Positions 1-33,650 of a stretch of 50,364 bases of DNA are shown one piece after another (position 1 is the first letter of the stretch; the number at the start of each line of letters is the position of its first letter). The position numbers and the translations under genes were made by a program. Source of the DNA: a virus. Lineage: Duplodnaviria; Heunggongvirae; Uroviricota; Caudoviricetes. A model generated the notes under the pieces. It saw only the letters and a list, made by a program, of their open reading frames with translations, was not told where the DNA came from and searched no databases. Location of the stretch: positions 1-50,364 of IMG/VR virus record IMGVR_UViG_2563366831_000011. One strand, 5' to 3'.

Positions 1-933
1 ATGGACAACGACAAAATTGATCAACACAGCGACGAAATTGAAGTTGAGAGCGAAGAAAAAGAGCGCGGCAAAAAAATAGAAATAGATGAAGATCGACTCC
101 CCTCCCGGGCGATGGCAATTCATGAGCATATCCGCCAGGATGGTGAAAAAGAGCTGGAACGCGACGCAATGGCGCTACTGTGGTCAGCCATTGCGGCGGG
201 TCTGTCGATGGGCGCTTCGCTACTGGCAAAAGGGATATTTCATGTCGAACTGGAAGGAGTGCCAGGCAGCTTCTTACTGGAGAATCTCGGTTATACCTTT
301 GGTTTTATTATCGTCATTATGGCCCGCCAGCAATTATTTACCGAAAACACCGTGACTGCGGTACTACCCGTCATGCAAAAACCGACAATGAGCAACGTCG
401 GCTTACTTATGCGATTATGGGGCGTCGTGCTGCTGGGTAATATTCTCGGGACAGGTATTGCTGCATGGGCATTTGAATATATGCCTATCTTCAATGAAGA
501 AACTCGCGATGCATTTGTCAAAATCGGCATGGATGTGATGAAGAACACCCCCAGCGAGATGTTTGCCAACGCGATCATTTCCGGCTGGCTGATCGCCACT
601 ATGGTTTGGATGTTTCCTGCTGCGGGTGCGGCAAAGATTGTGGTGATTATATTGATGACCTGGCTTATTGCACTGGGTGACACCACCCACATCGTTGTCG
701 GTTCTGTTGAAATCCTCTATCTGGTGTTTAACGGCACGCTGCACTGGAGCGATTTCATCTGGCCCTTCGCACTACCTACTTTAGCGGGGAACATCTGCGG
801 CGGCACCTTTATCTTCGCGTTAATGAGTCATGCACAGATTCGTAACGACATGAGCAACAAGCGTAAAGCAGAAGCACGCCAAAAAGCAGAACGTGCGGAA
901 AACATTAAGAAAAATGATAAAAACCCAGCATAA
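1..933 (+). CDS. yfdC: Inner-membrane formate/nitrite transporter (FNT) family protein
   Basis: 310-aa ORF starting at window base 1; multiple hydrophobic segments; recognised from memory as E. coli YfdC, which lies next to argW. Confidence 0.8.
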   Translation: MDNDKIDQHSDEIEVESEEKERGKKIEIDEDRLPSRAMAIHEHIRQDGEKELERDAMALLWSAIAAGLSMGASLLAKGIFHVELEGVPGSFLLENLGYTFGFIIVIMARQQLFTENTVTAVLPVMQKPTMSNVGLLMRLWGVVLLGNILGTGIAAWAFEYMPIFNEETRDAFVKIGMDVMKNTPSEMFANAIISGWLIATMVWMFPAAGAAKIVVIILMTWLIALGDTTHIVVGSVEILYLVFNGTLHWSDFIWPFALPTLAGNICGGTFIFALMSHAQIRNDMSNKRKAEARQKAERAENIKKNDKNPA

Positions 934-1008
934 ATGGCGAGGGTTTAAGCAATCGAGCGGCAGCGTACTTACCCCGCAGTCCATTAGCGGGTATACTCAT
1001 GCCGCATT

Positions 1009-1083
1009 GTCCTCTTAGTTAAATGGATATAACGAGCCCCTCCTAAGGGCTAATTGCAGGTTCGATTCCTGCAGGGGACACCA
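1009..1083 (+). tRNA. argW: tRNA-Arg (anticodon CCU)
   Basis: 75-nt sequence GTCCTCTTAGTT...GGTTCGATTCCTGCAGGGGACACCA folds as a cloverleaf by eye; anticodon loop CT-CCT-AA; ends in CCA. Confidence 0.9.
1069..1083 (+). repeat. attL core: 15-bp direct repeat CTGCAGGGGACACCA (tRNA 3-prime end)
   Basis: Identical 15-mer recurs at 48661..48675; integrase lies immediately inside. Confidence 0.65.
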
Positions 1084-1178
1084 TTTATCAGTTCGCTCCC
1101 ATCCGTACCAGTCCGTAAAATCCCCTGAATATCAAGCCTTCCGTAGATTTACAGTTCGTCATGGTTCGCGTCAGATCG

Positions 1179-1244
1179 TTGACAGCCGCACTACATGACG
1201 GGTAAAAAGTGGATAAAATAATTTTACCCACCGGATTTTTACCC
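1179..1244 (+). promoter_or_regulatory. int upstream region with perfect TTGACA hexamer and three copies of 8-mer TTTTACCC (two direct, one inverted)
   Basis: TTGACA at 1179..1184; GGGTAAAA 1200..1207 inverted against TTTTACCC 1222..1229; TTTTACCC again at 1237..1244 directly before the int ATG; -10 element ambiguous. Confidence 0.35.
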
Positions 1245-2405
1245 ATGCTCACCGTTAAGCAGATTGAAGCAGCAAAGCCGAAAGAAAAACCATACCGCCT
1301 TCTCGATGGTAATGGACTGTACCTTTATGTCCCTGTATCCGGGAAAAAGGTATGGCAGCTTCGCTACAAGATTGACGGTAAGGAGAAAGTCCTAACCGTA
1401 GGAAAATATCCGCTAATGACTTTGCAGGAGGCAAGGGATAAGGCATGGACTGCGAGGAAAGACATCTCGGTTGGCATCGATCCGGTAAAGGCGAAAAAGG
1501 CTTCGTCTAACAACAATTCATTTAGTGCGATTTACAAGGAATGGTACGAGCACAAGAAGCAAGTCTGGTCAGTAGGCTATGCAAATGAACTTGCAAAAAT
1601 GTTTGATGACGACATTTTACCTATCATCGGCGGCCTTGAAATTCAGGATATTGAGCCGATGCAACTACTGGAAGTAATCCGCAGATTTGAAGATCGCGGT
1701 GCAATGGAGCGAGCCAACAAAGCCCGCAGAAGATGCGGCGAGGTTTTCCGTTACGCTATTGTCACCGGCAGGGCTAAATATAACCCGGCACCTGACCTTG
1801 CTGACGCCATGAAAGGATACCGCAAGAAGAACTTCCCGTTTCTTCCTGCAGACCAGATCCCGGCATTCAACAAAGCACTGGCAACATTTTCAGGAAGTAT
1901 CGTATCGCTCATTGCGACCAAAGTTTTACGCTACACAGCCCTAAGAACGAAAGAGCTTCGTTCCATGCTATGGAAGAACGTCGATTTTGAAAACAGGATT
2001 ATCACCATCGACGCCAGCGTGATGAAGGGACGCAAGATTCATGTGGTCCCGATGTCGGACCAGGTGGTTGAACTTCTCACTACGCTAAGCTCCATCACTA
2101 AACCAGTATCAGAGTTTGTTTTTGCCGGACGCAACGATAAGAAGAAGCCAATCTGCGAGAACGCGGTATTGCTTGTGATCAAACAAATCGGCTATGAGGG
2201 TCTGGAAAGCGGTCACGGATTCAGGCATGAATTCAGCACGATTATGAACGAGCACGAATGGCCTGCTGATGCTATTGAAGTGCAACTTGCACATGCCAAC
2301 GGCGGATCTGTGCGCGGAATTTACAACCATGCTCAGTATCTCGATAAGCGCAGAGAAATGATGCAGTGGTGGGCTGATTACATCGATGGTCGTGCAGGAG
2401 TGTAA
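1245..2405 (+). CDS. intS: Tyrosine recombinase, P4-type phage integrase
   Basis: 386 aa from MLTVKQIEAAKPKEKPYRLLDGNGLYLYV, the typical P4-type integrase N-terminus; adjacent to tRNA att site; the tracked ORF begins 12 codons upstream at 1209. Confidence 0.85.
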   Translation: MLTVKQIEAAKPKEKPYRLLDGNGLYLYVPVSGKKVWQLRYKIDGKEKVLTVGKYPLMTLQEARDKAWTARKDISVGIDPVKAKKASSNNNSFSAIYKEWYEHKKQVWSVGYANELAKMFDDDILPIIGGLEIQDIEPMQLLEVIRRFEDRGAMERANKARRRCGEVFRYAIVTGRAKYNPAPDLADAMKGYRKKNFPFLPADQIPAFNKALATFSGSIVSLIATKVLRYTALRTKELRSMLWKNVDFENRIITIDASVMKGRKIHVVPMSDQVVELLTTLSSITKPVSEFVFAGRNDKKKPICENAVLLVIKQIGYEGLESGHGFRHEFSTIMNEHEWPADAIEVQLAHANGGSVRGIYNHAQYLDKRREMMQWWADYIDGRAGV

Positions 2406-2409
2406 GCCA

Positions 2410-3441
2410 TTACGCGAATTCTTCCACGATCGCCATGCCAGTAGCACCATCACCACCGGTAAATGCCGCACCGGTAAACCCAAGGTCATACGCGCCACCA
2501 CCACCGGATCCGGGAGCTGCGCCAGCAATACCGGCCTGAGAACCCGCCCGGCCACCGCCGCCAAAATACGACGCCCCGCCGTTGCCCGTCAGAAGGCTTG
2601 AGCCTGTCTGTCCATCTGAGCCGGTACCACCGTTGATCCTGATATCTCCGGTCGCCGCCGTACCTCCGGCGCCGCCGGCGGTATTGGACACGCCTGACTT
2701 CACGCCGCCTTTCCCGCCAGGAGCTGAGAACAGGCTGGCAAACGAGGTGGCCCCACCATCTGCACCACTTACTGCGCCAACTCCGCCCTTACCACCCTTG
2801 CCGACAGTAATCGCATAAGAACTGGCAGCAGACAGGTCAACCCATACGATAATGGTCGCGCCCGCGCCGCCGCCAGCACCGGAGAAGGTTTCTGTATTGT
2901 TGTAGGCCTGGCAGCCGCCACCGCCGCCACCGGCACCTGTCAACGTTACTTTTGCATAACGGGCCAGAGGAGATCGCGTATAGGTTCCGTTTGCATAGAA
3001 AGCTTTTGGAGCGCCAAGTGAACGCCCGACAAAACCAGAGGAATCAGATATTCCGAGGTTATAACGGGCTTCATTTACCGCATCCTCACCGGCATCTTTA
3101 ATTTCTGACAGGTTATTGCTGATCTGCAGGAACGATAACAATGATCCGGCTGTCATTAAATTCGCGACAATGTCATTCGTTGACCATACGCGTGCCGTTG
3201 TTCCTTCCTGACCACGAATTACTGTCATCACGTCACCGGATACAGACGTTACGTGCATAATTTCAGAAATTGTTTTCGTGGCCGCGTCGGTTATCGTTAA
3301 TTTGAAATAACTCTGCCCAGATACAGGAGAAGGGAATAAAGCCCCCGCTCCAGTTCCCACGGTAATAACGGTAGCGGACGCACTAATACCCGCAGCGAGA
3401 ACACTCTTTGCGTTATTATTGGCTAATAGCTTCAGCGCCAT
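2410..3441 (-). CDS. Tail fibre protein with glycine-rich C-terminal domain
   Basis: 343 aa; C-terminal half is a Gly-rich repeat domain (GGGGGGCQAY...GGKGGVGAVSGADGG...AYDLGFTG) paralogous to the C-terminus of the 6914..8209 product. Confidence 0.7.
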   Translation of the reverse strand: MALKLLANNNAKSVLAAGISASATVITVGTGAGALFPSPVSGQSYFKLTITDAATKTISEIMHVTSVSGDVMTVIRGQEGTTARVWSTNDIVANLMTAGSLLSFLQISNNLSEIKDAGEDAVNEARYNLGISDSSGFVGRSLGAPKAFYANGTYTRSPLARYAKVTLTGAGGGGGGCQAYNNTETFSGAGGGAGATIIVWVDLSAASSYAITVGKGGKGGVGAVSGADGGATSFASLFSAPGGKGGVKSGVSNTAGGAGGTAATGDIRINGGTGSDGQTGSSLLTGNGGASYFGGGGRAGSQAGIAGAAPGSGGGGAYDLGFTGAAFTGGDGATGMAIVEEFA

Positions 3442-3452
3442 ATATACCCCAG

Positions 3453-3770
3453 TTAAATAATAGAATTATCAGAACGAACATCGCAGATAGTAAATGTCAC
3501 GACGCCGATGACAGTAACATCGTCCAGGGCTTCACCCTCGATCACTTCGCCATCTTCGGTAATAAGTGATCTTCCTCTCAGCTTGGCAAGCTCCGTCCCG
3601 CCGCCATGCTGTATAAGCAGTTGGCTACCCTGCTTTGGCTTCAGGGAGATATCTAGTACAACGTAACCACCAGATCGCTCGAAAACTAGCGTGTTTGGGC
3701 CGACATTGCAGATCGAGTTAACAGACAACCTTTGCTCGACGTAGTCCGTCGCTGGTGAAGGGAATCCCAT
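3453..3770 (-). CDS. Hypothetical protein, second gene of an SOS-box operon
   Basis: 105 aa from the internal start MGFPSP; its ATG overlaps the upstream stop as TAATG (translational coupling); no family recognised. Confidence 0.5.
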   Translation of the reverse strand: MGFPSPATDYVEQRLSVNSICNVGPNTLVFERSGGYVVLDISLKPKQGSQLLIQHGGGTELAKLRGRSLITEDGEVIEGEALDDVTVIGVVTFTICDVRSDNSII

Positions 3771-4009
3771 TAGATCACCCTCCCCATGTTGGCCATCATC
3801 CACAGGCGGTTTTCACTATGCTCTGCCGTTTTATCGATGAAGTAAGACTGCTCGCGAGCGATCCAGGCGTTAGCCTCCACCTCGGAAAAGTGAATGCTAC
3901 GCCGGCGCAGCGCGGTAATGAAGTCGCGGGTGTGAAGGTACTGGAACCCCTTAGAACTGCGCAATACCGACTCGCGGAATGCCTGATTGATGTCTGACTG
4001 TCGATGCAT
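3770..4009 (-). CDS. Hypothetical protein, first gene of an SOS-box operon
   Basis: 79 aa from MHRQSD; GGAGG Shine-Dalgarno 7 nt upstream of the ATG; LexA box immediately upstream. Confidence 0.5.
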   Translation of the reverse strand: MHRQSDINQAFRESVLRSSKGFQYLHTRDFITALRRRSIHFSEVEANAWIAREQSYFIDKTAEHSENRLWMMANMGRVI

Positions 4010-4026
4010 GTCTTCCCTCCGATAAA

Positions 4027-4046
4027 TACTGTTTTTATATACAGTA
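4027..4046 (-). promoter_or_regulatory. LexA (SOS) box TACTGTTTTTATATACAGTA
   Basis: Matches the CTGT-N8-ACAG consensus with flanking TA/TA; sits 18 nt upstream of the 3770..4009 start codon, overlapping the likely -10. Confidence 0.6.
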
Positions 4047-4080
4047 GTTTTATTAGAAGGGAAGCTCAAGTGGTTGACAA

Positions 4081-4758
4081 TCAGTTGCCGTACTGGTCTC
4101 TATAGTATGATTTTATTTGTGAAATTTCTGATGTTGTCTTCGAAGTTGAAAAGATAAGAACTTCCGCATAGTTAACGTTATTCGCGGCAGTCGCCGCCAG
4201 CGTTAGCGGAGCATTCTGGTAGGTAATAGACGATGCCGCGGCTACGGTTATGGTCGCGTCGTTGACATACACCGTCTCGGTGTCAGTTATCGGGTCGTAG
4301 TTCACGATCACAAGATCAATGCCTGTGGATAAGGTCACCCCTCCCTGCTGGGTTGATGACCCTGTTTTGTAATAGTAGAGCTTGTTATCTGTCTGTGCCT
4401 GTAGCCGCAGATGGGGCCCCGCGATTAAAAAGGTAGCTTGTGTGGTGTTATCTCGCTTGAAAGCGAAGGCGTAGCAATAGCCGTTTTCCGCTGTAGCAGG
4501 GTAGACATTCTCAGATGTGACGCCGCCATTTGCGGTTAGCGCACTTTTCATCGTCTTGATTCCGTTCAGCGTCGACGCTGAGATTGCAGAACCTAATGCA
4601 ATATTCATATCGCCAGCGCGGTCTGCAAGAGTTGATACTCGCCAGTCAAAATAGTGCGAAGGGTTCCACCTGGCTGTTTTATCATCGCGCTCGGTATAGG
4701 TGGACTGAATACCGCTATTAACGGCGTTTGGAACCTGTAAAAAAGTACAAATTGCCAT
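4081..4758 (-). CDS. Hypothetical tail-fibre-associated protein
   Basis: 225 aa; AAGGA SD; directly downstream of the tailspike gene on the same strand; Ser/Thr/Asn-rich, beta-rich appearance. Confidence 0.5.
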   Translation of the reverse strand: MAICTFLQVPNAVNSGIQSTYTERDDKTARWNPSHYFDWRVSTLADRAGDMNIALGSAISASTLNGIKTMKSALTANGGVTSENVYPATAENGYCYAFAFKRDNTTQATFLIAGPHLRLQAQTDNKLYYYKTGSSTQQGGVTLSTGIDLVIVNYDPITDTETVYVNDATITVAAASSITYQNAPLTLAATAANNVNYAEVLIFSTSKTTSEISQIKSYYRDQYGN

Positions 4759-4769
4759 GGGTGTATTCC

Positions 4770-6899
4770 TTATTTTCTTAGGGATTGTACGGCGTAGTTC
4801 AGCAGTACTCGTTTTGCCTGATACGCGCCGATAATTCTGGCACCTCTGGCGTTAGGATGTGGGTCTGCGGGATTTGTTGTCGAATATGCATAGCCGTTCT
4901 GAAATGCAAAATTAGAATTCTTTATGAGGTCTCTTACATTGAATCCCAGCATTTTATAGGTTGACTGGATATTATCAAAAACGCTCTCACGCTTAATGTG
5001 ATTGTCGCTATACCAGCGCTCAAGGAAAATAGGCAATTTAGGAATCGCTGATTGAACACGTTCAACTATTGCACTATATCCGTTGAGAAAATCTGTGTCA
5101 GAAAGAGCATAATCATTTTCCCCAAGATTAATAAACGCGACATCCGGCTGAAAATATTGTATCCAGTATTGCTGATAAGACGCTGTTTGATTCAGGTAAT
5201 ACTGAAATGTTGCACCTCCTCTTGCGTAACGAATGACTCTGACGCCGCCAGCAGAGTTGATGCAATTGAAGCTGATCAGGGCAGGATAGCCTGCCTGACC
5301 AGATGCGGGAGGTTCAATTTCCAGGGCGAATCGACCTGAGTTCGGCCCCAGACCCTCCACCCTAACGATTGTTATCGTTTCGCTACCCTCAGGGTTATTC
5401 GGTATTGTGGCTGTTTGCCATTCCCCTGAACCCGCCGGGCCGGTGGAACCATCGTCATTCCTGTCGGTTGCACGGAACCGGAACTGACTAGATGTTCCGG
5501 CGTCTCCGGTACCAGTAAAACCGACCTCGACAACGTCGTGCTGATAAATGGGGTTGCTGCGGGCCGAATCTTTTACGCGAAAAAACAGGTTAGTTCGTCC
5601 AGCCCACGGTACTAGAGCAAAACTCAATGGTGCACATTTTTTCCCATAGGTCTGGTTATCGACCCAGCCAGTATAAACTAACTCCATATTCAGCAGATCT
5701 CTTGACGCTGTGTTATCGTTTGACGGTGCAAAATAACCGATACCCCCATGCCCAAGATTTGCTGCAAAAAGGCTGTACATAGCGTCAATGGCACCCAATC
5801 CCCCTGTGCCTGCAGTGAGAGAGTCACCCTGACAAAAAATAGTTAGATATCCTCCTGTGTATGCCCTTTCCTGCATCGCGATCATGTAATCAAGAAGACC
5901 AGTCTCTGGCAAGCTTGATGCAGCCTGAGAACCTCCTGACCCCGGCAATAGCAATTGGTCGTCGCTTCCGAGAATAGCGAATGGCGAAGATGAGTAGCCC
6001 TTTAAAATAGAACATCCGGCATCTTCTAAAGAATCAGTAGTTAAAAAAGATGCCATCTGGTTATCGCTTCCCATTACAGATAATGGCTTGCCTGGGATAC
6101 CGTAACCATATTTGATATCTGCCCCAGCATCGCGCATTCTGTCGCTATCATTGCCGTATTCAAGGACCTGATAATCAGTGCCTATGATTACGAATTTTTC
6201 ATCTCCGTATCCACTAAGAAATCTTACCCCTGCAAATATCCACGTTGAGGGCATCTGACGTCCGGTAGGCTGCAGCGTTCCGTCAACGTTTACTACCTCA
6301 ATAGCGAGCGTGTCGTCATTGTCAGTGCGATAATAAGCATTTGACCCAACAGGAATATTTCCAGCGTCTGCATCTGCCTGCGCCGCAGCCAGCGTCGGAA
6401 ACTCGCGGATTGTCCCTGTTATGGCCGCTGTACCCGGCTGCTTTGCCTGCAATACGGCCACGCCTGCTTTGTTTTGATACTGCCATGCAGCAGAAAGCGC
6501 ATCTGGACCTTGGGCTACCCAGAATGACTGCCCTTCAGTCGTTGCGGCCAGCCCGGCAATAGTGCCATCAGGATCGCTTGAGGTTTTATAGAATGTGAAC
6601 TTATTCCGTGCATATTCAGAGGCATCATTCTTGTACTCTTCAGCCTGCGCAGCTGAACCTGCGGCTGCCGTTGCCGATTCGGATGAGGCAGCGGCCGAAG
6701 TAGCAGCACTTTGTTCGGCCGTTTCTGCTGAGTTCTTGGCAGCTTCAGCCGCAGTTGCAGCATTAATCGCTTCCTGAGTGGTGGCGCTAATATCCTGATA
6801 GCCCTGCTGGACCTCGATCAGGTACTGCTTTGCCTCTGCGGCACTCACGGACGCCTCTGCCGCGAACTGTGCCGTTTGCTGTGTGTCGGTAGTCGCCAT
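4770..6899 (-). CDS. Tailspike/tail fibre with C-terminal SGNH (GDSL-like) esterase domain
   Basis: 709 aa from MATTDTQ (AGGAAA SD; tracked ORF extends to a GTG at 6920); Ala-rich N-terminus; SGNH blocks visible: FCQGDSLTAG (block I), FINLGENDYA (block III), PADPHPNARG (block V). Confidence 0.7.
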   Translation of the reverse strand: MATTDTQQTAQFAAEASVSAAEAKQYLIEVQQGYQDISATTQEAINAATAAEAAKNSAETAEQSAATSAAASSESATAAAGSAAQAEEYKNDASEYARNKFTFYKTSSDPDGTIAGLAATTEGQSFWVAQGPDALSAAWQYQNKAGVAVLQAKQPGTAAITGTIREFPTLAAAQADADAGNIPVGSNAYYRTDNDDTLAIEVVNVDGTLQPTGRQMPSTWIFAGVRFLSGYGDEKFVIIGTDYQVLEYGNDSDRMRDAGADIKYGYGIPGKPLSVMGSDNQMASFLTTDSLEDAGCSILKGYSSSPFAILGSDDQLLLPGSGGSQAASSLPETGLLDYMIAMQERAYTGGYLTIFCQGDSLTAGTGGLGAIDAMYSLFAANLGHGGIGYFAPSNDNTASRDLLNMELVYTGWVDNQTYGKKCAPLSFALVPWAGRTNLFFRVKDSARSNPIYQHDVVEVGFTGTGDAGTSSQFRFRATDRNDDGSTGPAGSGEWQTATIPNNPEGSETITIVRVEGLGPNSGRFALEIEPPASGQAGYPALISFNCINSAGGVRVIRYARGGATFQYYLNQTASYQQYWIQYFQPDVAFINLGENDYALSDTDFLNGYSAIVERVQSAIPKLPIFLERWYSDNHIKRESVFDNIQSTYKMLGFNVRDLIKNSNFAFQNGYAYSTTNPADPHPNARGARIIGAYQAKRVLLNYAVQSLRK

Positions 6900-6913
6900 A
6901 ATTTTTCCTGTTA

Positions 6914-8209
6914 TTACCACTCGATATGCACAATGCCATCGGCGCCATCGCCGGACGGGTAAGCTATTCCGCTGAAATCAATATCGTAAGCACCACCACC
7001 GCCAGAGCCTGCTGCTTTCCCTTTCACACCGCCGGTTGCGCCGCTGCGTCCTCCGCCACCCCAGAACGAAGCCCCGCCAGAACCGGTAAGCATGTTGGTC
7101 GCAGCCTGGCCGTCATGACCAGTGCCACCCTGAATGTTGATATCGCCACCTGACGCAACACCGCCATCACCACCGGCGCTGTTCACGATGCTGGCCTTGT
7201 TGGATTTTTTTCCACCGCGGCCGAAGATGATCCCACCCAAAGAAGAGTCACCGCCGTCATTGCCCGATACGGCACCTAAAACCGCTGCACCGCCTTTGCC
7301 GACGACAACGGATAAGGTCGTTCCCGGGACAACGTCCAGCCAGCCTAAAGCTGTACCGCCAGCCCCGCCACCGCCACCGCTATAGGACTCACTTGAGGAG
7401 GACGCCTGACAACCGCTTCCGGATCCGCCTGCACCCGTCACGGTGTAACGAATGCGCGTCACCCCTGCAGGCACGACGAACGAATACGTCCCGTTGACTG
7501 CGTAAGCGATGTTTCCGTGAGGCTTCGAAAGGGAGGTTACGTTGGTTCCATCGGAGTGGATTTGCGTAACCGTTCCTGGCTTGCTGACAACTGTTGCGCC
7601 CGCCGCCCTGGTACTTAACTGAACGTAGTAAGCGCTGCCGGTGCAGTTATTTTCGATGGTCCAGTCTTTCACCCATGGAGGGAGATATAGGATCCGGTTA
7701 CCAGTTAGCGCGCCGGTGAGAATTAGCCGTGGGTTAGCAGCCTGCAGATCGGTGGCGTTAACGTTAGCCGTCGATATTGAAATGCTGGCCGCTCCGCATC
7801 CCCATGAAGGCATCCAGCCAGATGCCGTTGCATCGGTTTTTTCCGGTGCGGTGTTATTGGAGTCAATGGTGTTGAGCCACGACACCGAGTAATCGCTGGA
7901 AGGGATCACCGCACCTTTAGGGTAGCCTGAAATTGCTGTTCTGAAATCTGCGTTAAAGGGGTACCCCATCCCGGCATCCGACCATTGCAGGCGAGTGTAA
8001 AGATCATTAAAAATGCCGTTAAAGTCCTGACCCTTTGGCGGCTTACCGCCGGCAGAAAGTGCGATACGGGTCAGCGGCGGGAAACCGGAATCCATAGCCG
8101 CCAGGCCGTCGGCCAGCGTTTCAGAGGTGGAATTGACCGGGATCGTGTTTTTGTCGCCGCTCGCAGAAAATACAACCGTCAGACGTGACGGTATGGCTGA
8201 ATTATTCAA
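6914..8209 (-). CDS. Tail fibre protein with glycine-rich C-terminal domain
   Basis: 431 aa; C-terminal Gly-rich domain (GGGGGAGGTALGW...GGKGG...AYDIDFSG) paralogous to 2410..3441; follows the baseplate I-like gene. Confidence 0.7.
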   Translation of the reverse strand: MNNSAIPSRLTVVFSASGDKNTIPVNSTSETLADGLAAMDSGFPPLTRIALSAGGKPPKGQDFNGIFNDLYTRLQWSDAGMGYPFNADFRTAISGYPKGAVIPSSDYSVSWLNTIDSNNTAPEKTDATASGWMPSWGCGAASISISTANVNATDLQAANPRLILTGALTGNRILYLPPWVKDWTIENNCTGSAYYVQLSTRAAGATVVSKPGTVTQIHSDGTNVTSLSKPHGNIAYAVNGTYSFVVPAGVTRIRYTVTGAGGSGSGCQASSSSESYSGGGGGAGGTALGWLDVVPGTTLSVVVGKGGAAVLGAVSGNDGGDSSLGGIIFGRGGKKSNKASIVNSAGGDGGVASGGDINIQGGTGHDGQAATNMLTGSGGASFWGGGGRSGATGGVKGKAAGSGGGGAYDIDFSGIAYPSGDGADGIVHIEW

Positions 8210-8210
8210 T

Positions 8211-8798
8211 TCAGACCTCCTGAACGATGTTAACTTTTACCCCGGGAGGGGAAGGAAGCGCGCCGGAGCTTTGCACTATGGCCAGCTCAGATTCGGAAAG
8301 CTGGAACTCGAATACGTAGCTCATGACATGGTTTCCATCGTCACGCACGTAAGCTCGCCCACTGGCTCCGAACATGTACATCAGCATGCGATTCATGACC
8401 GGCACGGTGCAGTCGCTGATTTTCGCCATCGCTTTGCACATGATCAGCTTGCGGTATGCCTCATTGGTCAGGACGACAGTATTCGTGTCCTGTACGCCGG
8501 TATAGAAAGGTGCCTGGTTAAAGGGTTGCGGGTCGGTGAGTTCTGCCGGGGTACTGGTCGCTTCGCCAAACCCCAGAAACTGCTGGGATGGCGTCACAGT
8601 CAGCAAGCGCTCTACATCAACGATTTTACCCCAGCACATCAGCCCGTAATCACCACAGGTCTCGATGTTGAATACGAGGTCATAGAACGTGTCTATCCAG
8701 TCCTCTGGCGCTACAGAAGCGTTAAATGTGTCAATCAGTGACCGCAGGCTGGTTGAGTTCACGTACTGCGCGTAGATCGTCCAGTCGACATTATTCAC
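8211..8798 (-). CDS. Baseplate/tail protein (P2 gpI-like position)
   Basis: 195 aa; between the baseplate J-like gene and a tail fibre gene, overlapping the J stop by 8 nt. Confidence 0.5.
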   Translation of the reverse strand: MNNVDWTIYAQYVNSTSLRSLIDTFNASVAPEDWIDTFYDLVFNIETCGDYGLMCWGKIVDVERLLTVTPSQQFLGFGEATSTPAELTDPQPFNQAPFYTGVQDTNTVVLTNEAYRKLIMCKAMAKISDCTVPVMNRMLMYMFGASGRAYVRDDGNHVMSYVFEFQLSESELAIVQSSGALPSPPGVKVNIVQEV

Positions 8799-10023
8799 TT
8801 ACCGCCTCCGTTATGATGTTTGTCGCATCGAGGGTCGGTTCCTGATCTATCCCCATAGTCAGCGCACTAGACCAGGTGGTTCCGTCCAGAGAGATCTGGA
8901 CAGAAAGAACGTTCATGTTCTGTGCATCGAGCGCCTGAATGGGTCCGATATAGCGGCTGCCATAAATTCGCGCGCCGGCACGCGCCCGGGTACCTCCATC
9001 TGCGCCGGTAAAGGCATTCAGGACGACCGTTCTGATCTGCGCGTTGATATCTGACGGAAGGCCATCATTTTCCTCATATTCCACCTTGATATGAACACTC
9101 ACCGCGTCCAGCGTTTTCCACCTGTAGGTGTACTCCGGATAAGGGGCGTCATAATTTTCGGTATCCTGCACGGTCCCGGTGGTGTCACCGTTCATAACGG
9201 TGCCCGGGGGGAGTTTTTTATTGATGGCCGCTGCAATCTCAGCTACTGCCCCGCCATAAACCCCGATATAAATCGAGCTGGCCAGCAGTGTGTAATTCGT
9301 GGAACCTTTTTCGACGGAAGTCGGCTCTTTGTTGTCGATCACATAAACATCAAGCACCCCGTCGACTTCCAGGACAGCAGCCCGCACAGCCGCCGCCGTG
9401 TTGAAGGCGTTACGTGCCACTGACTGGCGACGGCGATACTCAAATGCAGATCGCCCTTCAACATTCGAGCCCGGTACACCCGCGGTCTCGTTGGTGATAC
9501 TCGACCAGCCACTTACCGCGACATAGATGTTTGTCAGCGTACCGATGGGGCAAGCTATCGGACCGGTAGTCAGGTTCTGGAACTCAATTTTTACCGTCCC
9601 GTCTGCGCCAATCGTTCCGGCCGCCAGGGACACGTACATATAACCGTTATCGTCTGTTGCATAGGACTGTGCCGGAATAACCGTTCCCGGTACGCCGGAG
9701 CATGTGGCCGTTACAACCGTACCCGCAGCAGCAATACGATCGAGGAAGTAAATCCTGCCAATGCCATCCTGAAATCTTCCGGAGGAAAAGTCCGGGTTCA
9801 TGTTGTTGACGATAGCCAGAAGCTGATCGTTCTTGTCTGCGATGATTGCAGTATCAGTGACAGCCAGTTGCCCCTGTGGCGTCTTGAGGTTCGTGCTCAT
9901 CGCCGTCCCGAATGCAGAACCAATATCTGCTATACGCCCGGCAAGAATGTCTCCCTCATCCGGAACATCAAGGCCAGTGGTGGAAAAGGTCACGGCCGGT
10001 ACCGCCGTAGAGATTGTCGTCAT
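8791..10023 (-). CDS. Baseplate J-like protein
   Basis: 410 aa from MTTISTAV (GAGGA SD); size and position fit the baseplate J/gp47 family; assignment by recalled family features. Confidence 0.6.
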   Translation of the reverse strand: MTTISTAVPAVTFSTTGLDVPDEGDILAGRIADIGSAFGTAMSTNLKTPQGQLAVTDTAIIADKNDQLLAIVNNMNPDFSSGRFQDGIGRIYFLDRIAAAGTVVTATCSGVPGTVIPAQSYATDDNGYMYVSLAAGTIGADGTVKIEFQNLTTGPIACPIGTLTNIYVAVSGWSSITNETAGVPGSNVEGRSAFEYRRRQSVARNAFNTAAAVRAAVLEVDGVLDVYVIDNKEPTSVEKGSTNYTLLASSIYIGVYGGAVAEIAAAINKKLPPGTVMNGDTTGTVQDTENYDAPYPEYTYRWKTLDAVSVHIKVEYEENDGLPSDINAQIRTVVLNAFTGADGGTRARAGARIYGSRYIGPIQALDAQNMNVLSVQISLDGTTWSSALTMGIDQEPTLDATNIITEAVSE

Positions 10024-10030
10024 TTTTTCC

Positions 10031-10387
10031 TCACAGGGTGACGCTGGAATCCAGGCCGTTGGTATCCACGATCGCAATAACGCCGGTAGTGCGGCGCGTA
10101 TCGCGGTTGTTAATCAGCGTCGGCTCAGCTCGCGCGATATAGCTCATCCGCAACGCTTCAACCTGAAGCGCGGCCGCCATGGCGCCAGTGCTGGCCTTAA
10201 CGTTAAGCAGCTCTTTGTAATTAACGCCGGTGTCTTTTTCGTAAATGCACTCGCCGCGTATAGCCAGGCATGCCGTCGCTACGTCCTGAGCGCAGGCGTA
10301 GGGGTTTTCAACCGTGGCGATATTACCCAGCTCATCAAGGACAAGATCCCAGGTGTCGGGATCGAGTTTGAGAGAGATTGTTTTCAT
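10031..10387 (-). CDS. Small baseplate protein (gpW/gp25-like position)
   Basis: 118 aa ORF immediately upstream of the J-like gene. Confidence 0.45.
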   Translation of the reverse strand: MKTISLKLDPDTWDLVLDELGNIATVENPYACAQDVATACLAIRGECIYEKDTGVNYKELLNVKASTGAMAAALQVEALRMSYIARAEPTLINNRDTRRTTGVIAIVDTNGLDSSVTL

Positions 10388-10442
10388 GGATTTCGCCCAT
10401 AAAAAAACCCAGCCGAAGCTGGGTTTGTTAAGTTGTCAATTG

Positions 10443-11447
10443 TCAGTAGCGATGCAGTGAAGGCGGCAACTCTTTGTTCTTAAGTCTTACCCATGCGGAA
10501 AGATTCGTTGGTCCGTCTGGCTCATTGATATCAACATCTCGTGTGTGGTTGATTAAAACGTCTCTCGCCATTCCGATAACATACGAAAACTCATGACCGT
10601 AGTCGTAGCATCTTCCGGAATAGTTCGATTGAATTTGTTTTAATGCCGGATACAGTTCGCGGAATAATGCCTGTGATCGGTTAGCATAATCCCACAACCA
10701 TACAAGGCTGTTTGCTTCTTTTGCAGAAAGCTCGTTGGTGCTCTTCTCTTGTTTGCCAATGAACTCACCTTCAAGTGGAACTCGAGCTGCAAGTGACAGT
10801 GCTTCGGTAAACTGCTCCTCACTGATTTCTTTGTACGAACAGCCAAAATGAGATTTCAGTGACGACCACATAGTGATCATCGCCTTCGCCTGTTTTTCTT
10901 TTGGCAGAGACTGACCGCGACTCATGACGAGTTGTTTAATAGCTTCCTGCTGTTCAGTGGTGATTTTACCCGGCAACACCTTTTTAGCTTTGCGCGGGTT
11001 AACCACATGGCCTTTAGTCCAGTACTCGTAGAGCACATCGTCACACTCTTCCTGATACTGGATTACCTTGTCGCGGATTTCAGGGCGGACTTTGTTTGGT
11101 TGAATGCTTGAAAGCCAAGCCGCAAATTTACGAAAGGCAAGACATGTCATTAACTGTTTACCGCCAGCAGAAGGTATTTCGATTTCCGAAATACCTTTGG
11201 CAAACCTCTGTTTTAACTTAACAAATTGAGCAGCCCAAACCATCCCCATACCTTCAACAACAGGCTTCATAGGAACATAAGGCTCATTGTTAATTCCAAC
11301 CAAAAAGAGATTTGTTCCGTGGAATGGAACATTGATTGTGCGATCTGCAATTGCTAAACTAGTCATATCAGTTTTCTCGTGGTTAACTGGTAATTTAGAA
11401 GCCTCAATGGTTGCAGCCATTGAGGCTTCGCTGTTTTTAGCGACCAT
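10443..11447 (-). CDS. ant: Antirepressor (P22 Ant-like)
   Basis: 334 aa from MVAKNSE (GAGGTG SD; tracked ORF starts upstream at 11489); directly downstream of an Arc-like RHH gene and divergent from an Mnt-like gene, as in P22 immI. Confidence 0.55.
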
Positions 11448-11610
11448 TCGCCACCTCTTCCCTAACACCTTTTGCCAGCAAACGAACAATTGCAGAGTTC
11501 AGAGATATACAGTCCATTTCCGCCAGGCGGCGAAGGTCTTCATTCAGCCGTGATGGAAGGCGAAGGTTGAGTTTGATATTTTTGCGCTCAGTGAAAAGTG
11601 TATCTTGCAT
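11437..11610 (-). CDS. arc: Arc-like ribbon-helix-helix repressor
   Basis: 57-aa ORF found by hand (below the ORF-track cutoff): [45 protein letters not shown]; RHH pattern similar to P22 Arc. Confidence 0.55.
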
Positions 11611-11717
11611 TATCTAATCTCCTTTATTTGGTGCCAAAGTGACACCATGAAGGCCATGATGCCACCATTGAAATCGTATGGCAATATGGCACCATGATTT
11701 TTTTTGAGAGATTTGCA
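11611..11717. promoter_or_regulatory. Divergent promoter/operator region between arc-ant and mnt
   Basis: 107-bp intergenic with repeated GGTGCCA/TGGCACC-type motifs; by analogy with P22 Pant/Pmnt. Confidence 0.4.
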
Positions 11718-12038
11718 ATGGCCGAAAAACAAGTAAAAGACTACGACAAGTTCAACCTCCGTTTTCCTGACGGAATGCGAGATGCTATAGCTGAACGAGC
11801 CAAACGAAACGGGCGCTCTATGAACTCAGAGATTGTTCAGATACTGGAAGATGCCTTGAATGCAGAAAATACACTCGGGGAAATAGCAGATAAAATTAAC
11901 AGCGTCTCGGTTCCGCTAAATGTTGATGCGCTAGTTCAACTTCAAGCCCAGGTTATCGCCATGCAAAAAGAAATACAGGAAAAGTTCAGAGAGCAGAACG
12001 AAAAGTTGAGAGAACTGCTAAACAAAAAACCCACCTGA
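11718..12038 (+). CDS. mnt: Mnt-like ribbon-helix-helix repressor
   Basis: 106 aa from MAEKQVKD; FNLRFPDGMRDAIAERAKRNGRSMNSEIVQILEDAL resembles the P22 Mnt N-terminus; coiled-coil C-terminus. Confidence 0.6.
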   Translation: MAEKQVKDYDKFNLRFPDGMRDAIAERAKRNGRSMNSEIVQILEDALNAENTLGEIADKINSVSVPLNVDALVQLQAQVIAMQKEIQEKFREQNEKLRELLNKKPT

Positions 12039-33494: not shown

Positions 33495-33570
33495 TGGTGC
33501 TGTTTAACGGACTTGAACCGCTACCCATTCGCTTACAAGGCGACCGCTCTACCATTGGAGCTAAAACAGC
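33495..33570 (-). tRNA. tRNA-Thr (anticodon UGU), phage-encoded
   Basis: 76 nt; perfect 7-bp acceptor stem, 4-bp D stem, anticodon loop CTTGTAA, T-loop TTCAAGT, discriminator A then CCA (folded by eye). Confidence 0.75.
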
Positions 33571-33575
33571 ATGTT

Positions 33576-33650
33576 TGGCGGGACAGCGTGGACTCGAACC
33601 ACGATAAGAAGGTTAACAGCCTTCCGTAATGACCTTTATACGACTGACCC
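33576..33650 (-). tRNA. tRNA-Asn-like (anticodon GUU), possibly degenerate
   Basis: 75 nt; 5-bp anticodon stem with loop CTGTTAA, T-stem and TTCGAGT loop, terminal CCA; one mismatch each in acceptor and D stems. Confidence 0.45.

Follow-up and report, generated by a model that had tools for sequence, protein, structure and literature searches.

Esterase tailspikes are known from phages with several adhesins, such as gp63.1 of phage G7C. In cyanophage Pam3, a simple myovirus, receptors are recognised by the fibre protein gp24, in which the strands of a TNF-like sandwich extend into a lattice of glycine-rich motifs, the stem consisting of conserved glycines and the variable distal loop tips being the proposed receptor binders (PMC9608196). 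The fibre TFP_Y of Klebsiella phage SCNJ1-Y binds lipopolysaccharide (LPS) and triggers DNA ejection, and its host-range mutations lie in the glycine-rich domain (PMC12671077). The present study deals with a 50,364-nucleotide (nt) stretch of a Caudoviricetes genome (IMG/VR record IMGVR_UViG_2563366831_000011, positions 1 to 50,364; hereafter the window), in which two glycine-rich tail fibre genes flank an SGNH/GDSL esterase tailspike gene, a gene for a 225-amino-acid (aa) protein and a pair of small genes preceded by a LexA (SOS) box. We propose that this region is probably the host-recognition end of a contractile-tail prophage at argW, encoding three receptor-binding proteins, and that the terminal fibre was imported by one recombination.

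The terminal fibre (343 aa), encoded by the last gene of the operon, and the baseplate-proximal fibre (431 aa) were identical at 101 of 205 positions (49%) when residues 141-340 of the former were aligned with residues 226-430 of the latter by BLASTP (composition-adjusted E 1e-22), and their local alignment scored 527, compared with 112 +/- 11 for 1000 composition-preserving shuffles (z 36.5). Glycine paired with glycine made up 48 of the 98 identical columns, and identity was 39.7% in the 126 columns that were glycine-free on both sides. Both proteins matched Gly_rich_2 (PF21722) at 51.6 bits over nearly the whole 226-position model, for which the cut-off is 24.3, while similarity between their N-terminal parts was at the shuffle level (z -0.45). 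The initial annotation, which had described a shared Gly-rich C-terminal domain on differing N-termini and had left room for low-complexity glycine similarity as its cause, was therefore borne out in its description, and the identity in the glycine-free columns indicates true homology rather than a shared glycine composition. In an alignment of 36 sequences, mean column identity was 40% and glycine occupied 14 of the 16 invariant columns, the other two being R140 and E341. The differences between the two copies in the window fell mainly between the glycine motifs, which is consistent with two tips of different specificity.

The 36-sequence profile of the 343-aa protein matched the Pam3 fibre (PDB 7YFW/7YPX) over the whole C-terminal domain (E 3e-8); single-sequence PDB searches did not retrieve Pam3, the profile search alone doing so. 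In an AlphaFold2 (AF2) model of the 343-aa protein, the predicted local distance difference test score (pLDDT) exceeded 90 across residues 141-343, and the best Foldseek matches of this part were the Bxb1 tail tip and the Pam3 fibre, followed by the TNF-like plus glycine-rich (TG) domains of ALK/LTK. On the strength of the profile and the predicted fold, the shared domain is regarded as a TNF-like plus polyglycine receptor-binding domain of the Pam3 gp24 kind. The window fibres resemble gp24 both in this C-terminal beta-sandwich with its glycine-rich, polyglycine-type part and in being short one-protein fibres encoded beside baseplate wedge genes of a simple myovirus, whereas their N-terminal docking domains are unrelated to that of gp24. 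The closest functional precedent is TFP_Y, an enterobacterial, Pam3-gp24-like fibre with a TNF-like plus glycine-rich domain, the likeness being one of description and not of sequence comparison; SCNJ1-Y differs in being a lytic phage with a single such fibre (PMC12671077). Polyglycine-II lattices bearing variable receptor- or ligand-binding loops are also found in Salmonella phage S16 gp38 and in the TG domain of ALK/LTK, though gp38 forms a separate adhesin at the tip of a long fibre, and ALK and LTK, which are receptor kinases of animals, gave weaker Foldseek matches; neither gp38 nor ALK/LTK showed sequence-level homology to the window fibres.

The first ~105 residues of the terminal fibre aligned with the N-terminus of a 'putative tail fiber protein' in PDB 8jov (E 2.5e-7; 1.8e-9 with the profile), which forms 18 chains of a solved virion assembly and is unrelated to the terminal fibre beyond the N-terminus. 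PDB 8jov is probably the portal-tail complex of Ralstonia phage GP4. Anchors 75-99% identical to that of the terminal fibre were joined in the protein database to at least four C-termini (Gly_rich_2, Gp53-like_C, Collar, and Collar plus Phage_fiber), and the TG domain of the 343-aa type was carried on P2-like (DUF3751) N-termini as well. The N-terminal 133 aa of the 431-aa fibre were 72-73% identical to the fibres of Klebsiella phages RCIP0114 and ST15-VIM1phi2.1, which carry another, more diverged Gly_rich_2 C-terminus and whose baseplate DNA is 95.5% identical to the window. Because both anchors occur with several C-terminal types, both genes encode classic fibres with an anchor and an exchangeable tip. 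The N-terminus of the 431-aa protein was conserved together with the tail module, and this protein, with its tail-specific anchor, is almost certainly mounted on the virion. A search for a shared adaptor revealed no similarity between the 172-aa pre-spike protein of prophages of the Chronis type (the myovirus lineage of Klebsiella phage Chronis and E. coli fM51a) and the N-terminus of the 431-aa fibre, and the wedge and J proteins of the two tail types gave no cross-matches at E 1e-5. The anchor of the terminal fibre has been cut off in several E. coli genomes, in which the RefSeq/PGAP call is 272 aa; the intact 343-aa ORF is present despite this call in loci L006 (9005-10036), L007 (9005-10036) and L071 (5005-6036).

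The two fibres had initially been explained by the duplication of a single fibre gene in this genome, with the N-terminal domain of one copy swapped and the cargo inserted between the copies. Such a history would agree with a 5.8-kb stretch that encodes two homologous C-terminal domains in one orientation, and with domain swapping, which is clearly frequent in both genes. However, blastn found nothing but GGN-type runs of at most 23 nt in common between the two genes, and the TG domain of the 343-aa protein has many closer relatives elsewhere: it shares 58-67% identity with domains that sit on unrelated N-termini in Serratia, Klebsiella and other hosts, and the neighbouring copy, at 49%, ranked only 25th. 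Furthermore, in the closest relatives of the tail, RCIP0114 and ST15-VIM1phi2.1, the gene order is fibre, spike, LexA-box pair, integrase and the distal fibre is absent, and prophages with other tail types contain DNA that is 92-98% identical to the distal fibre and its flanks. A duplication within this genome is thus highly unlikely. Since closer relatives sit on other N-termini and nucleotide similarity is lacking, the second fibre is evidently not a local duplicate, and the two TG fibres appear to be old paralogues at the domain level. What stands of the initial proposal is a receptor-binding module with domain-level paralogues and an exchangeable host-range cassette; its history of duplication and insertion does not.

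The distal fibre gene was found at the integrase-proximal end of prophages with four different tail types at 94-98% nucleotide identity, its carriers including, besides the window, a prophage with the L003-type baseplate (PDP110P2), a lambda-like siphovirus at argW in E. coli ECSD228 and a prophage with a Chronis-type tail at dacD. Orthologues differed at 17-37 of 1,032 nt (96.4-98.4% identity), mostly synonymously (synonymous to nonsynonymous differences 13:4, 22:3, 14:4 and 34:3), and the gene is under purifying selection overall. In strain ECSD228 the terminal TG fibre directly follows a chimera of side tail fibre and spike. This chimera is an intact 1246-aa ORF (L005, 10095-13835), unannotated or pseudogenised by PGAP, in which a lambda Stf-type N-terminus leads into the tailspike neck segment and then into a large body of unrelated sequence, and after which come the TG fibre and intS.

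In blastn, positions 1-6668 of the window formed one continuous alignment, at 91.9% identity, with L071, the argW prophage of E. coli fM51a. The alignment runs from yfdC through argW, int, the terminal fibre, the SOS pair and the 225-aa gene to the spike body, as far as residue ~85-95. The baseplate of L071 is different, with a 472-aa E1_FCCH-type J protein and a 234-aa wedge protein like those of Klebsiella phage Chronis, Pantoea phage PdC23 and the Yersinia vB_YenM phages, and its spike begins with an anchor 58% identical to that of the terminal fibre, as do the tailspikes of Chronis-type prophages. To the right of ~6668 the window resembled phages of its own tail type, positions 6247-10426 being 95.6% identical to PDP110P1 (L004) and 7971-10427 being 95.5% identical to the Klebsiella phages. 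The esterase tailspike, the 225-aa ORF and the SOS operon do lie between the two fibres, as had been noted, and a perfect LexA box backs the SOS operon, but comparison with argW prophages indicates that the cargo was not inserted between duplicates, since the whole span is colinear with a prophage of another baseplate type. The junction falls in the neck segment (spike residues 96-225) common to all spikes compared, and the mosaic boundaries coincide with domain borders. Because positions 1-6668 are colinear with a Chronis-type prophage and the terminal fibre is native there, one recombination inside the tailspike gene probably imported the second fibre. Prophages with other integrases carry, along with the terminal fibre cassette, a remnant of the 3'-end of an IntS-type integrase gene, and in loci of the PDP110P1 and AMR2684 type it still lies beside the cassette, next to another integrase. 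Judged from sequence, this remnant was left by the recombination through which the cassette moved.

Two unbiased IMG/VR samples, in which window-type tails were recognised by the wedge protein with at least 4.5 kb downstream (n=42) and Chronis-type tails by their wedge (n=43 for all relatives; n=24 for close ones, with a wedge at least 90% identical), gave different pictures of the two tail types. Window-type tails carried the SOS pair in 31/42 cases, the terminal fibre in 5/42 and two TG ORFs in 2/42, and 28 loci of this type had the SOS pair without the terminal fibre. Among the close Chronis-type tails, an anchor-bearing spike and an anchor-bearing terminal fibre occurred together in 24/24, and at least one anchor-bearing adhesin was present in all 43 relatives. 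The terminal fibre thus belongs to the Chronis-type apparatus throughout, but has reached the window type only sporadically. The LexA-box pair, occurring in 31 window-type tails against five for the distal fibre, is the older and more widespread resident of the position between the fibres. PDP110P1 (L004) and E. coli AMR2684 with its relatives (L070) have exactly the same arrangement with two TG fibres, and in most of 55 IMG/VR loci the terminal fibre lay ~0-2.4 kb from the end of the contig, that is, of the predicted prophage region.

In the tailspike, listed as 716 aa, an Ala-rich helical N-terminus (aa 1-95) is followed by the conserved neck segment (aa 96-225) and then by the esterase body. 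Its GDS motif is CQGDSLTAG at residue 365, and the GDSL profile match is borderline and confined to residues 556-697 (PF00657 25.0 bits, cut-off 23.6; PF13472 32.0 bits, just under the cut-off of 32.9). The listed GTG start at 6920 overlaps the end of the 431-aa fibre gene; because homologues begin at the equivalent position, the ATG at 6899 (MATTDTQQ...) is probably the true start. No solved esterase spike with a sequence match to the window spike was found. Its likeness to the G7C gp63.1 type lies in the combination of an SGNH/GDSL-type esterase spike with further fibres in one adsorption apparatus. In L071 and in Klebsiella phages the 225-aa gene accompanies the spike body, its product having only close homologues, at 74-92% identity. 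Although its AF2 model is poor (pLDDT 52), Foldseek matched lectin-like jelly rolls (E about 1e-4), and the product may tentatively be assigned a concanavalin-A-like or LamG-like lectin fold. A gene for 225-267 aa followed the spike in six of the 11 tailspikes compared, with a similar short C-terminal motif (e.g. LSDTELSAAY, TSEISQIKSYY); BLAST and Pfam found no mutual likeness among these genes, which may encode spike-specific accessory or carbohydrate-binding subunits.

The LexA box TACTGTATATAAAAACAGTA, a perfect 20-nt palindrome that we take to be identical to the operator of E. coli umuDC, was conserved at the same place in 10 related loci with 0-4 mismatches. By this consensus box, the unit of the 79-aa and 105-aa genes is a predicted member of the LexA (SOS) regulon, to which LexA would bind, and the box together with its conservation suggests a promoter there. 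Both genes are shorter than the mechanically listed ORFs (PHROG 3893 aligns to residues 21-99 of the longer listed ORF, the true gene encoding 79 aa), and the stop of the 79-aa gene overlaps the start of the 105-aa gene (ATGA). The 105-aa protein matched the 'UmuD-like' PHROG 3469 and begins at the residue equivalent to the cleavage site of UmuD (MGFPSPATDYVEQR; GFPSPATDYVEQR). The catalytic-serine segment SGDSM is absent from its sequence, only the N-terminal arm GFPSPAxDYVEQR being conserved; its NCBIfam HumD (NF051876) score of 48.5 bits is below the equivalog cut-off of 120, and Pfam Peptidase_S24 gave no match. It is therefore best described as UmuD'-like and is not demonstrably a HumD. 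The pair resembles P1 HumD/UmuD' and the LexA operons at prophage ends, such as the Gifsy dinI-antirepressor and 186 tum operons, in having a LexA box and small genes near the end (PMC3121763). The 105-aa product shares with P1 HumD its beginning at the UmuD cleavage point but lies far under the HumD cut-off and has no catalytic serine segment. In contrast to the Gifsy and 186 operons, an SOS antirepressor is not needed here because the prophage has a cleavable CI; an antirepressor role for the 79-aa protein, considered by analogy with these phages, was not supported, as CI combines a helix-turn-helix domain with Peptidase_S24. A defence role for the small genes was rejected, PADLOC giving no matches. 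The pair with its LexA box was found at the integrase-proximal end of P22-like, E217-like, Chronis-type and other-tail prophages (L001-L011). In Klebsiella phage ST15-VIM1phi2.1 (L002, MK448228.1), the region 778-2705, annotated as 'retron-type reverse transcriptase', encodes a group II intron-encoded protein (Rfam RF02005 D1-D4 at 2428-2653, 183 bits; RF00029 at 778-852), the intron being inserted between the conserved LexA box (2705-2686) and the homologue of the 79-aa gene.

Taken together, the host-recognition end probably works as follows. A 431-aa proximal fibre, encoded after the J protein and the DUF2612 wedge protein, carries a tail-type-specific anchor of ~130 aa and a TG tip. The SGNH/GDSL esterase tailspike, with its 225-aa accessory gene, would bind and deacetylate O-antigen, catalysis being predicted. 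The third protein is the 343-aa terminal fibre, with a different anchor and a TG domain 49% identical to the first, encoded 11 nt past the LexA-box pair and abutting the integrase gene. As has been reported for relatives, the TG tips may use the variable tips of their loops to bind LPS (core) or a receptor in the outer membrane, and one or both TG fibres would engage the receptor after the spike has acted, leading to baseplate triggering. The terminal fibre is native to the Chronis/fM51a lineage, whose tailspike has the same anchor, and a single crossover in the tailspike neck probably brought in the spike body, the 225-aa gene, the SOS pair, the terminal fibre, int and attP as one block. The 11-nt gap suggests that the terminal fibre is co-transcribed with the SOS pair, and transcription presumably reaches it from the SOS promoter as well as by late read-through.

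Several observations weigh against this interpretation. A sigma-70 scan scored no promoter at the LexA box; the TG fold of the 431-aa protein is deduced from 49% identity and the Pfam match; the distribution counts come from IMG/VR contigs that are possibly redundant or cut at prophage ends; and Pam3 gp24 requires a chaperone encoded just downstream, for which no counterpart follows either fibre here. Pam3 has one fibre type and the dedicated chaperone gp25, whereas the window has two TG fibres and no recognisable chaperone, the gene after the 431-aa fibre being the spike and that after the 343-aa fibre being the integrase on the opposite strand; Pfam, PHROG and NCBIfam gave no Tfa-like or chaperone matches among the fibre neighbours. 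That the 79-aa and UmuD'-like proteins serve as assembly chaperones of the TG fibre, by analogy with Pam3 gp25, might be suggested by their position immediately upstream of the terminal fibre and by the lack of other candidates, but the same pair, LexA box included, lies behind the tailspike in an argW podovirus prophage that is P22-like and lacks a TG fibre, recurs in the window-type loci without a terminal fibre, and has in its 105-aa member the arm of UmuD'/HumD, which makes this role extremely unlikely. A further objection concerns the fibre itself: an intact terminal fibre recurs on window-type tails with at least three C-terminal types (window/L004/L070, L052/L054 and L010/L041/L043), so that this baseplate may make use of it.

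The terminal fibre could accordingly be a working second or third receptor-binding protein in this phage, docking on a site common to many tail types, for example the spike neck (aa 96-225), and forming a branched adhesin with a wider host range. Its ORF is intact and under purifying selection, it is found with window-type, L003-type, lambda-like and Chronis-type tails, the tips that it carries on window-type tails vary as just described, and in nearly all loci the spike encoded upstream has the neck segment, as does the lambda Stf-spike chimera. The co-occurrence with the neck was set aside as uninformative, because the neck is equally present in the spikes of phages without a terminal fibre (L001, L002, L008). 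The linkage to int/attP and the spike body accounts for its spread without a function, only a few of the window-type tails have it, and the spike changed its anchor on entering the window tail type while the fibre kept its own. We regard a working fibre as a serious possibility that falls somewhat short of being probable. Because its anchor belongs to another baseplate type and, unlike the spike, it received no new N-terminus on transfer, we lean slightly towards the terminal fibre being a linked passenger here, yet a real second fibre in its native tail type; docking is kept open because the fibre recurs on window-type tails with three different tips. It is, in addition, improbable that the LexA box, the 79-aa and serine-less UmuD'-like genes and the terminal fibre form a self-contained mobile host-range cassette that is made under SOS control and mounts on several tail architectures; if so, the fibre would be made independently of the late operon and mounted, for example, via the shared spike neck, and one recombination would re-target myovirus-type and lambda-like phages alike. 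A non-virion role of the 343-aa protein in the lysogen, such as receptor masking or action on neighbouring cells after SOS induction, would fit its being the third gene after a conserved perfect LexA box, across a gap of 11 nt, and its place beside int, where P22-like argW phages keep lysogenic-conversion genes. However, it has no secretion signal, its N-terminus is homologous to virion fibre anchors, it is universal in its native tail type beside a spike with the same anchor, and it can follow a side-tail-fibre gene directly, with no SOS pair, so that such a role is very unlikely.

Positions of the features in the window and, where a locus number is given, in the loci compared
Feature	Position	Strand	Basis or remark
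yfdC	1-933		Precedes argW
tRNA-Arg(CCT), argW	1009..1083	+	Integration site, attL side; ARAGORN, Rfam tRNA
IntS-type tyrosine integrase	1209..2405	+	Pfam Phage_integrase, Phage_int_M, Arm-DNA-bind_3; PGAP homologue 'prophage integrase IntS'
intS 3'-end sequence/remnant	Window 2317-2405; L003 6001-6093; L004 4001-4093; L070 2866-2952; L007 8866-9000		
Terminal (distal) tail fibre, 343 aa	2410..3441	-	PHROG tail-fibre families, PF21722
TG domain of terminal fibre, aa 141-343	2413..3021	-	Profile, AF2, Foldseek
N-terminal anchor of terminal fibre, aa 1-140	3022..3441	-	Match to PDB 8jov N-terminus
UmuD'/HumD-like protein, 105 aa	3453..3770	-	PHROG 3469, 3.8e-46; PGAP homologues 'S24/S26 family peptidase'
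79-aa protein, function unknown	3770..4009	-	First gene after LexA box; PHROG 3893; PGAP homologues 240 nt
LexA (SOS) box TACTGTATATAAAAACAGTA	4027..4046	-	17 nt upstream of 79-aa gene start
225-aa accessory gene	4081..4758	-	PHROG 19416, function unknown
Post-spike genes, 225-267 aa	Window 4081-4758; L010 7590-8363; L006 10709-11509; L008 8643-9446; L014 5027-5764; L002 2812-3564		
SGNH/GDSL esterase tailspike, as listed	4770..6920	-	Pfam GDSL, PHROG 14987, PGAP 'SGNH/GDSL hydrolase family protein'
Approximate recombination junction	6655..6680	.	Left colinear with Chronis-type argW prophage; right window-type (E217-like) tail
Baseplate-proximal tail fibre, 431 aa	6914..8209	-	PHROG 12796 'tail fiber protein', full length, 1.9e-178; PF21722
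TG domain of 431-aa fibre, aa 226-431	6917-7534		
N-terminal anchor of 431-aa fibre, aa 1-133	7811-8209		
DUF2612 baseplate wedge protein	8211..8798	-	Pfam PF11041, 5e-50
Baseplate J-like protein	8791..10077	-	Pfam PF04865, PHROG 6

The late genes of this temperate contractile-tail phage lie on the minus strand from 2410 to beyond 30 kb and encode, among others, a DUF3383 sheath, an E217_Gp32-like tube, an E217_GP41-like hub, baseplate J and the DUF2612 wedge, which matched the baseplate wedge/triplex proteins 7kh1 gp17 and 8env E217 gp45 weakly. The last six genes of the string, from 8209 to 2410, are separated by gaps of 11 nt or overlap, except for a 71-nt gap (4010-4080) that lies upstream of the 79-aa gene and contains the LexA box. 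The short gaps and overlaps, together with the absence of terminator-like sites between these genes, point to a single transcription string. The terminal fibre gene and the integrase gene are convergent, their stop codons lying 4 nt apart. Further upstream, an immI-like island (10405-12038) with a P22-type antirepressor Ant (10443-11489) and Arc/Mnt-like small ORFs (11437-11610 and 11694-12038) breaks the tail string between the hub/baseplate genes and the sheath-initiator/J genes; it includes a strong terminator-like hairpin at 10426-10405, and L010 has the same layout. Phage-borne genes for tRNA-Thr(TGT) and tRNA-Asn(GTT) are located on the minus strand within the prophage (33495-33650).

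The arrangement is ordinary phage mosaicism, every component coming from a described family, and its clean boundaries make it a good illustration of the way in which the adsorption apparatus of temperate enterobacterial phages is rebuilt, with breakpoints at domain borders, namely the fibre anchors and the conserved tailspike neck. For annotation, genes for a 'glycine-rich domain-containing protein' in E. coli and Klebsiella prophages are recognisable as genes for Pam3-gp24-type receptor-binding fibres, some automatic calls truncating the anchor domain, and for host-range engineering of phages and tailocins the junctions between anchor and tip are natural swap points. The foreign-anchor fibre on this baseplate may also be a case of module incompatibility after recombination. 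A single crossover in the neck would transfer the spike body, the accessory gene, the SOS pair, the second fibre, the integrase and attP at once, so that a phage can alter both its host range and its integration site in one step.

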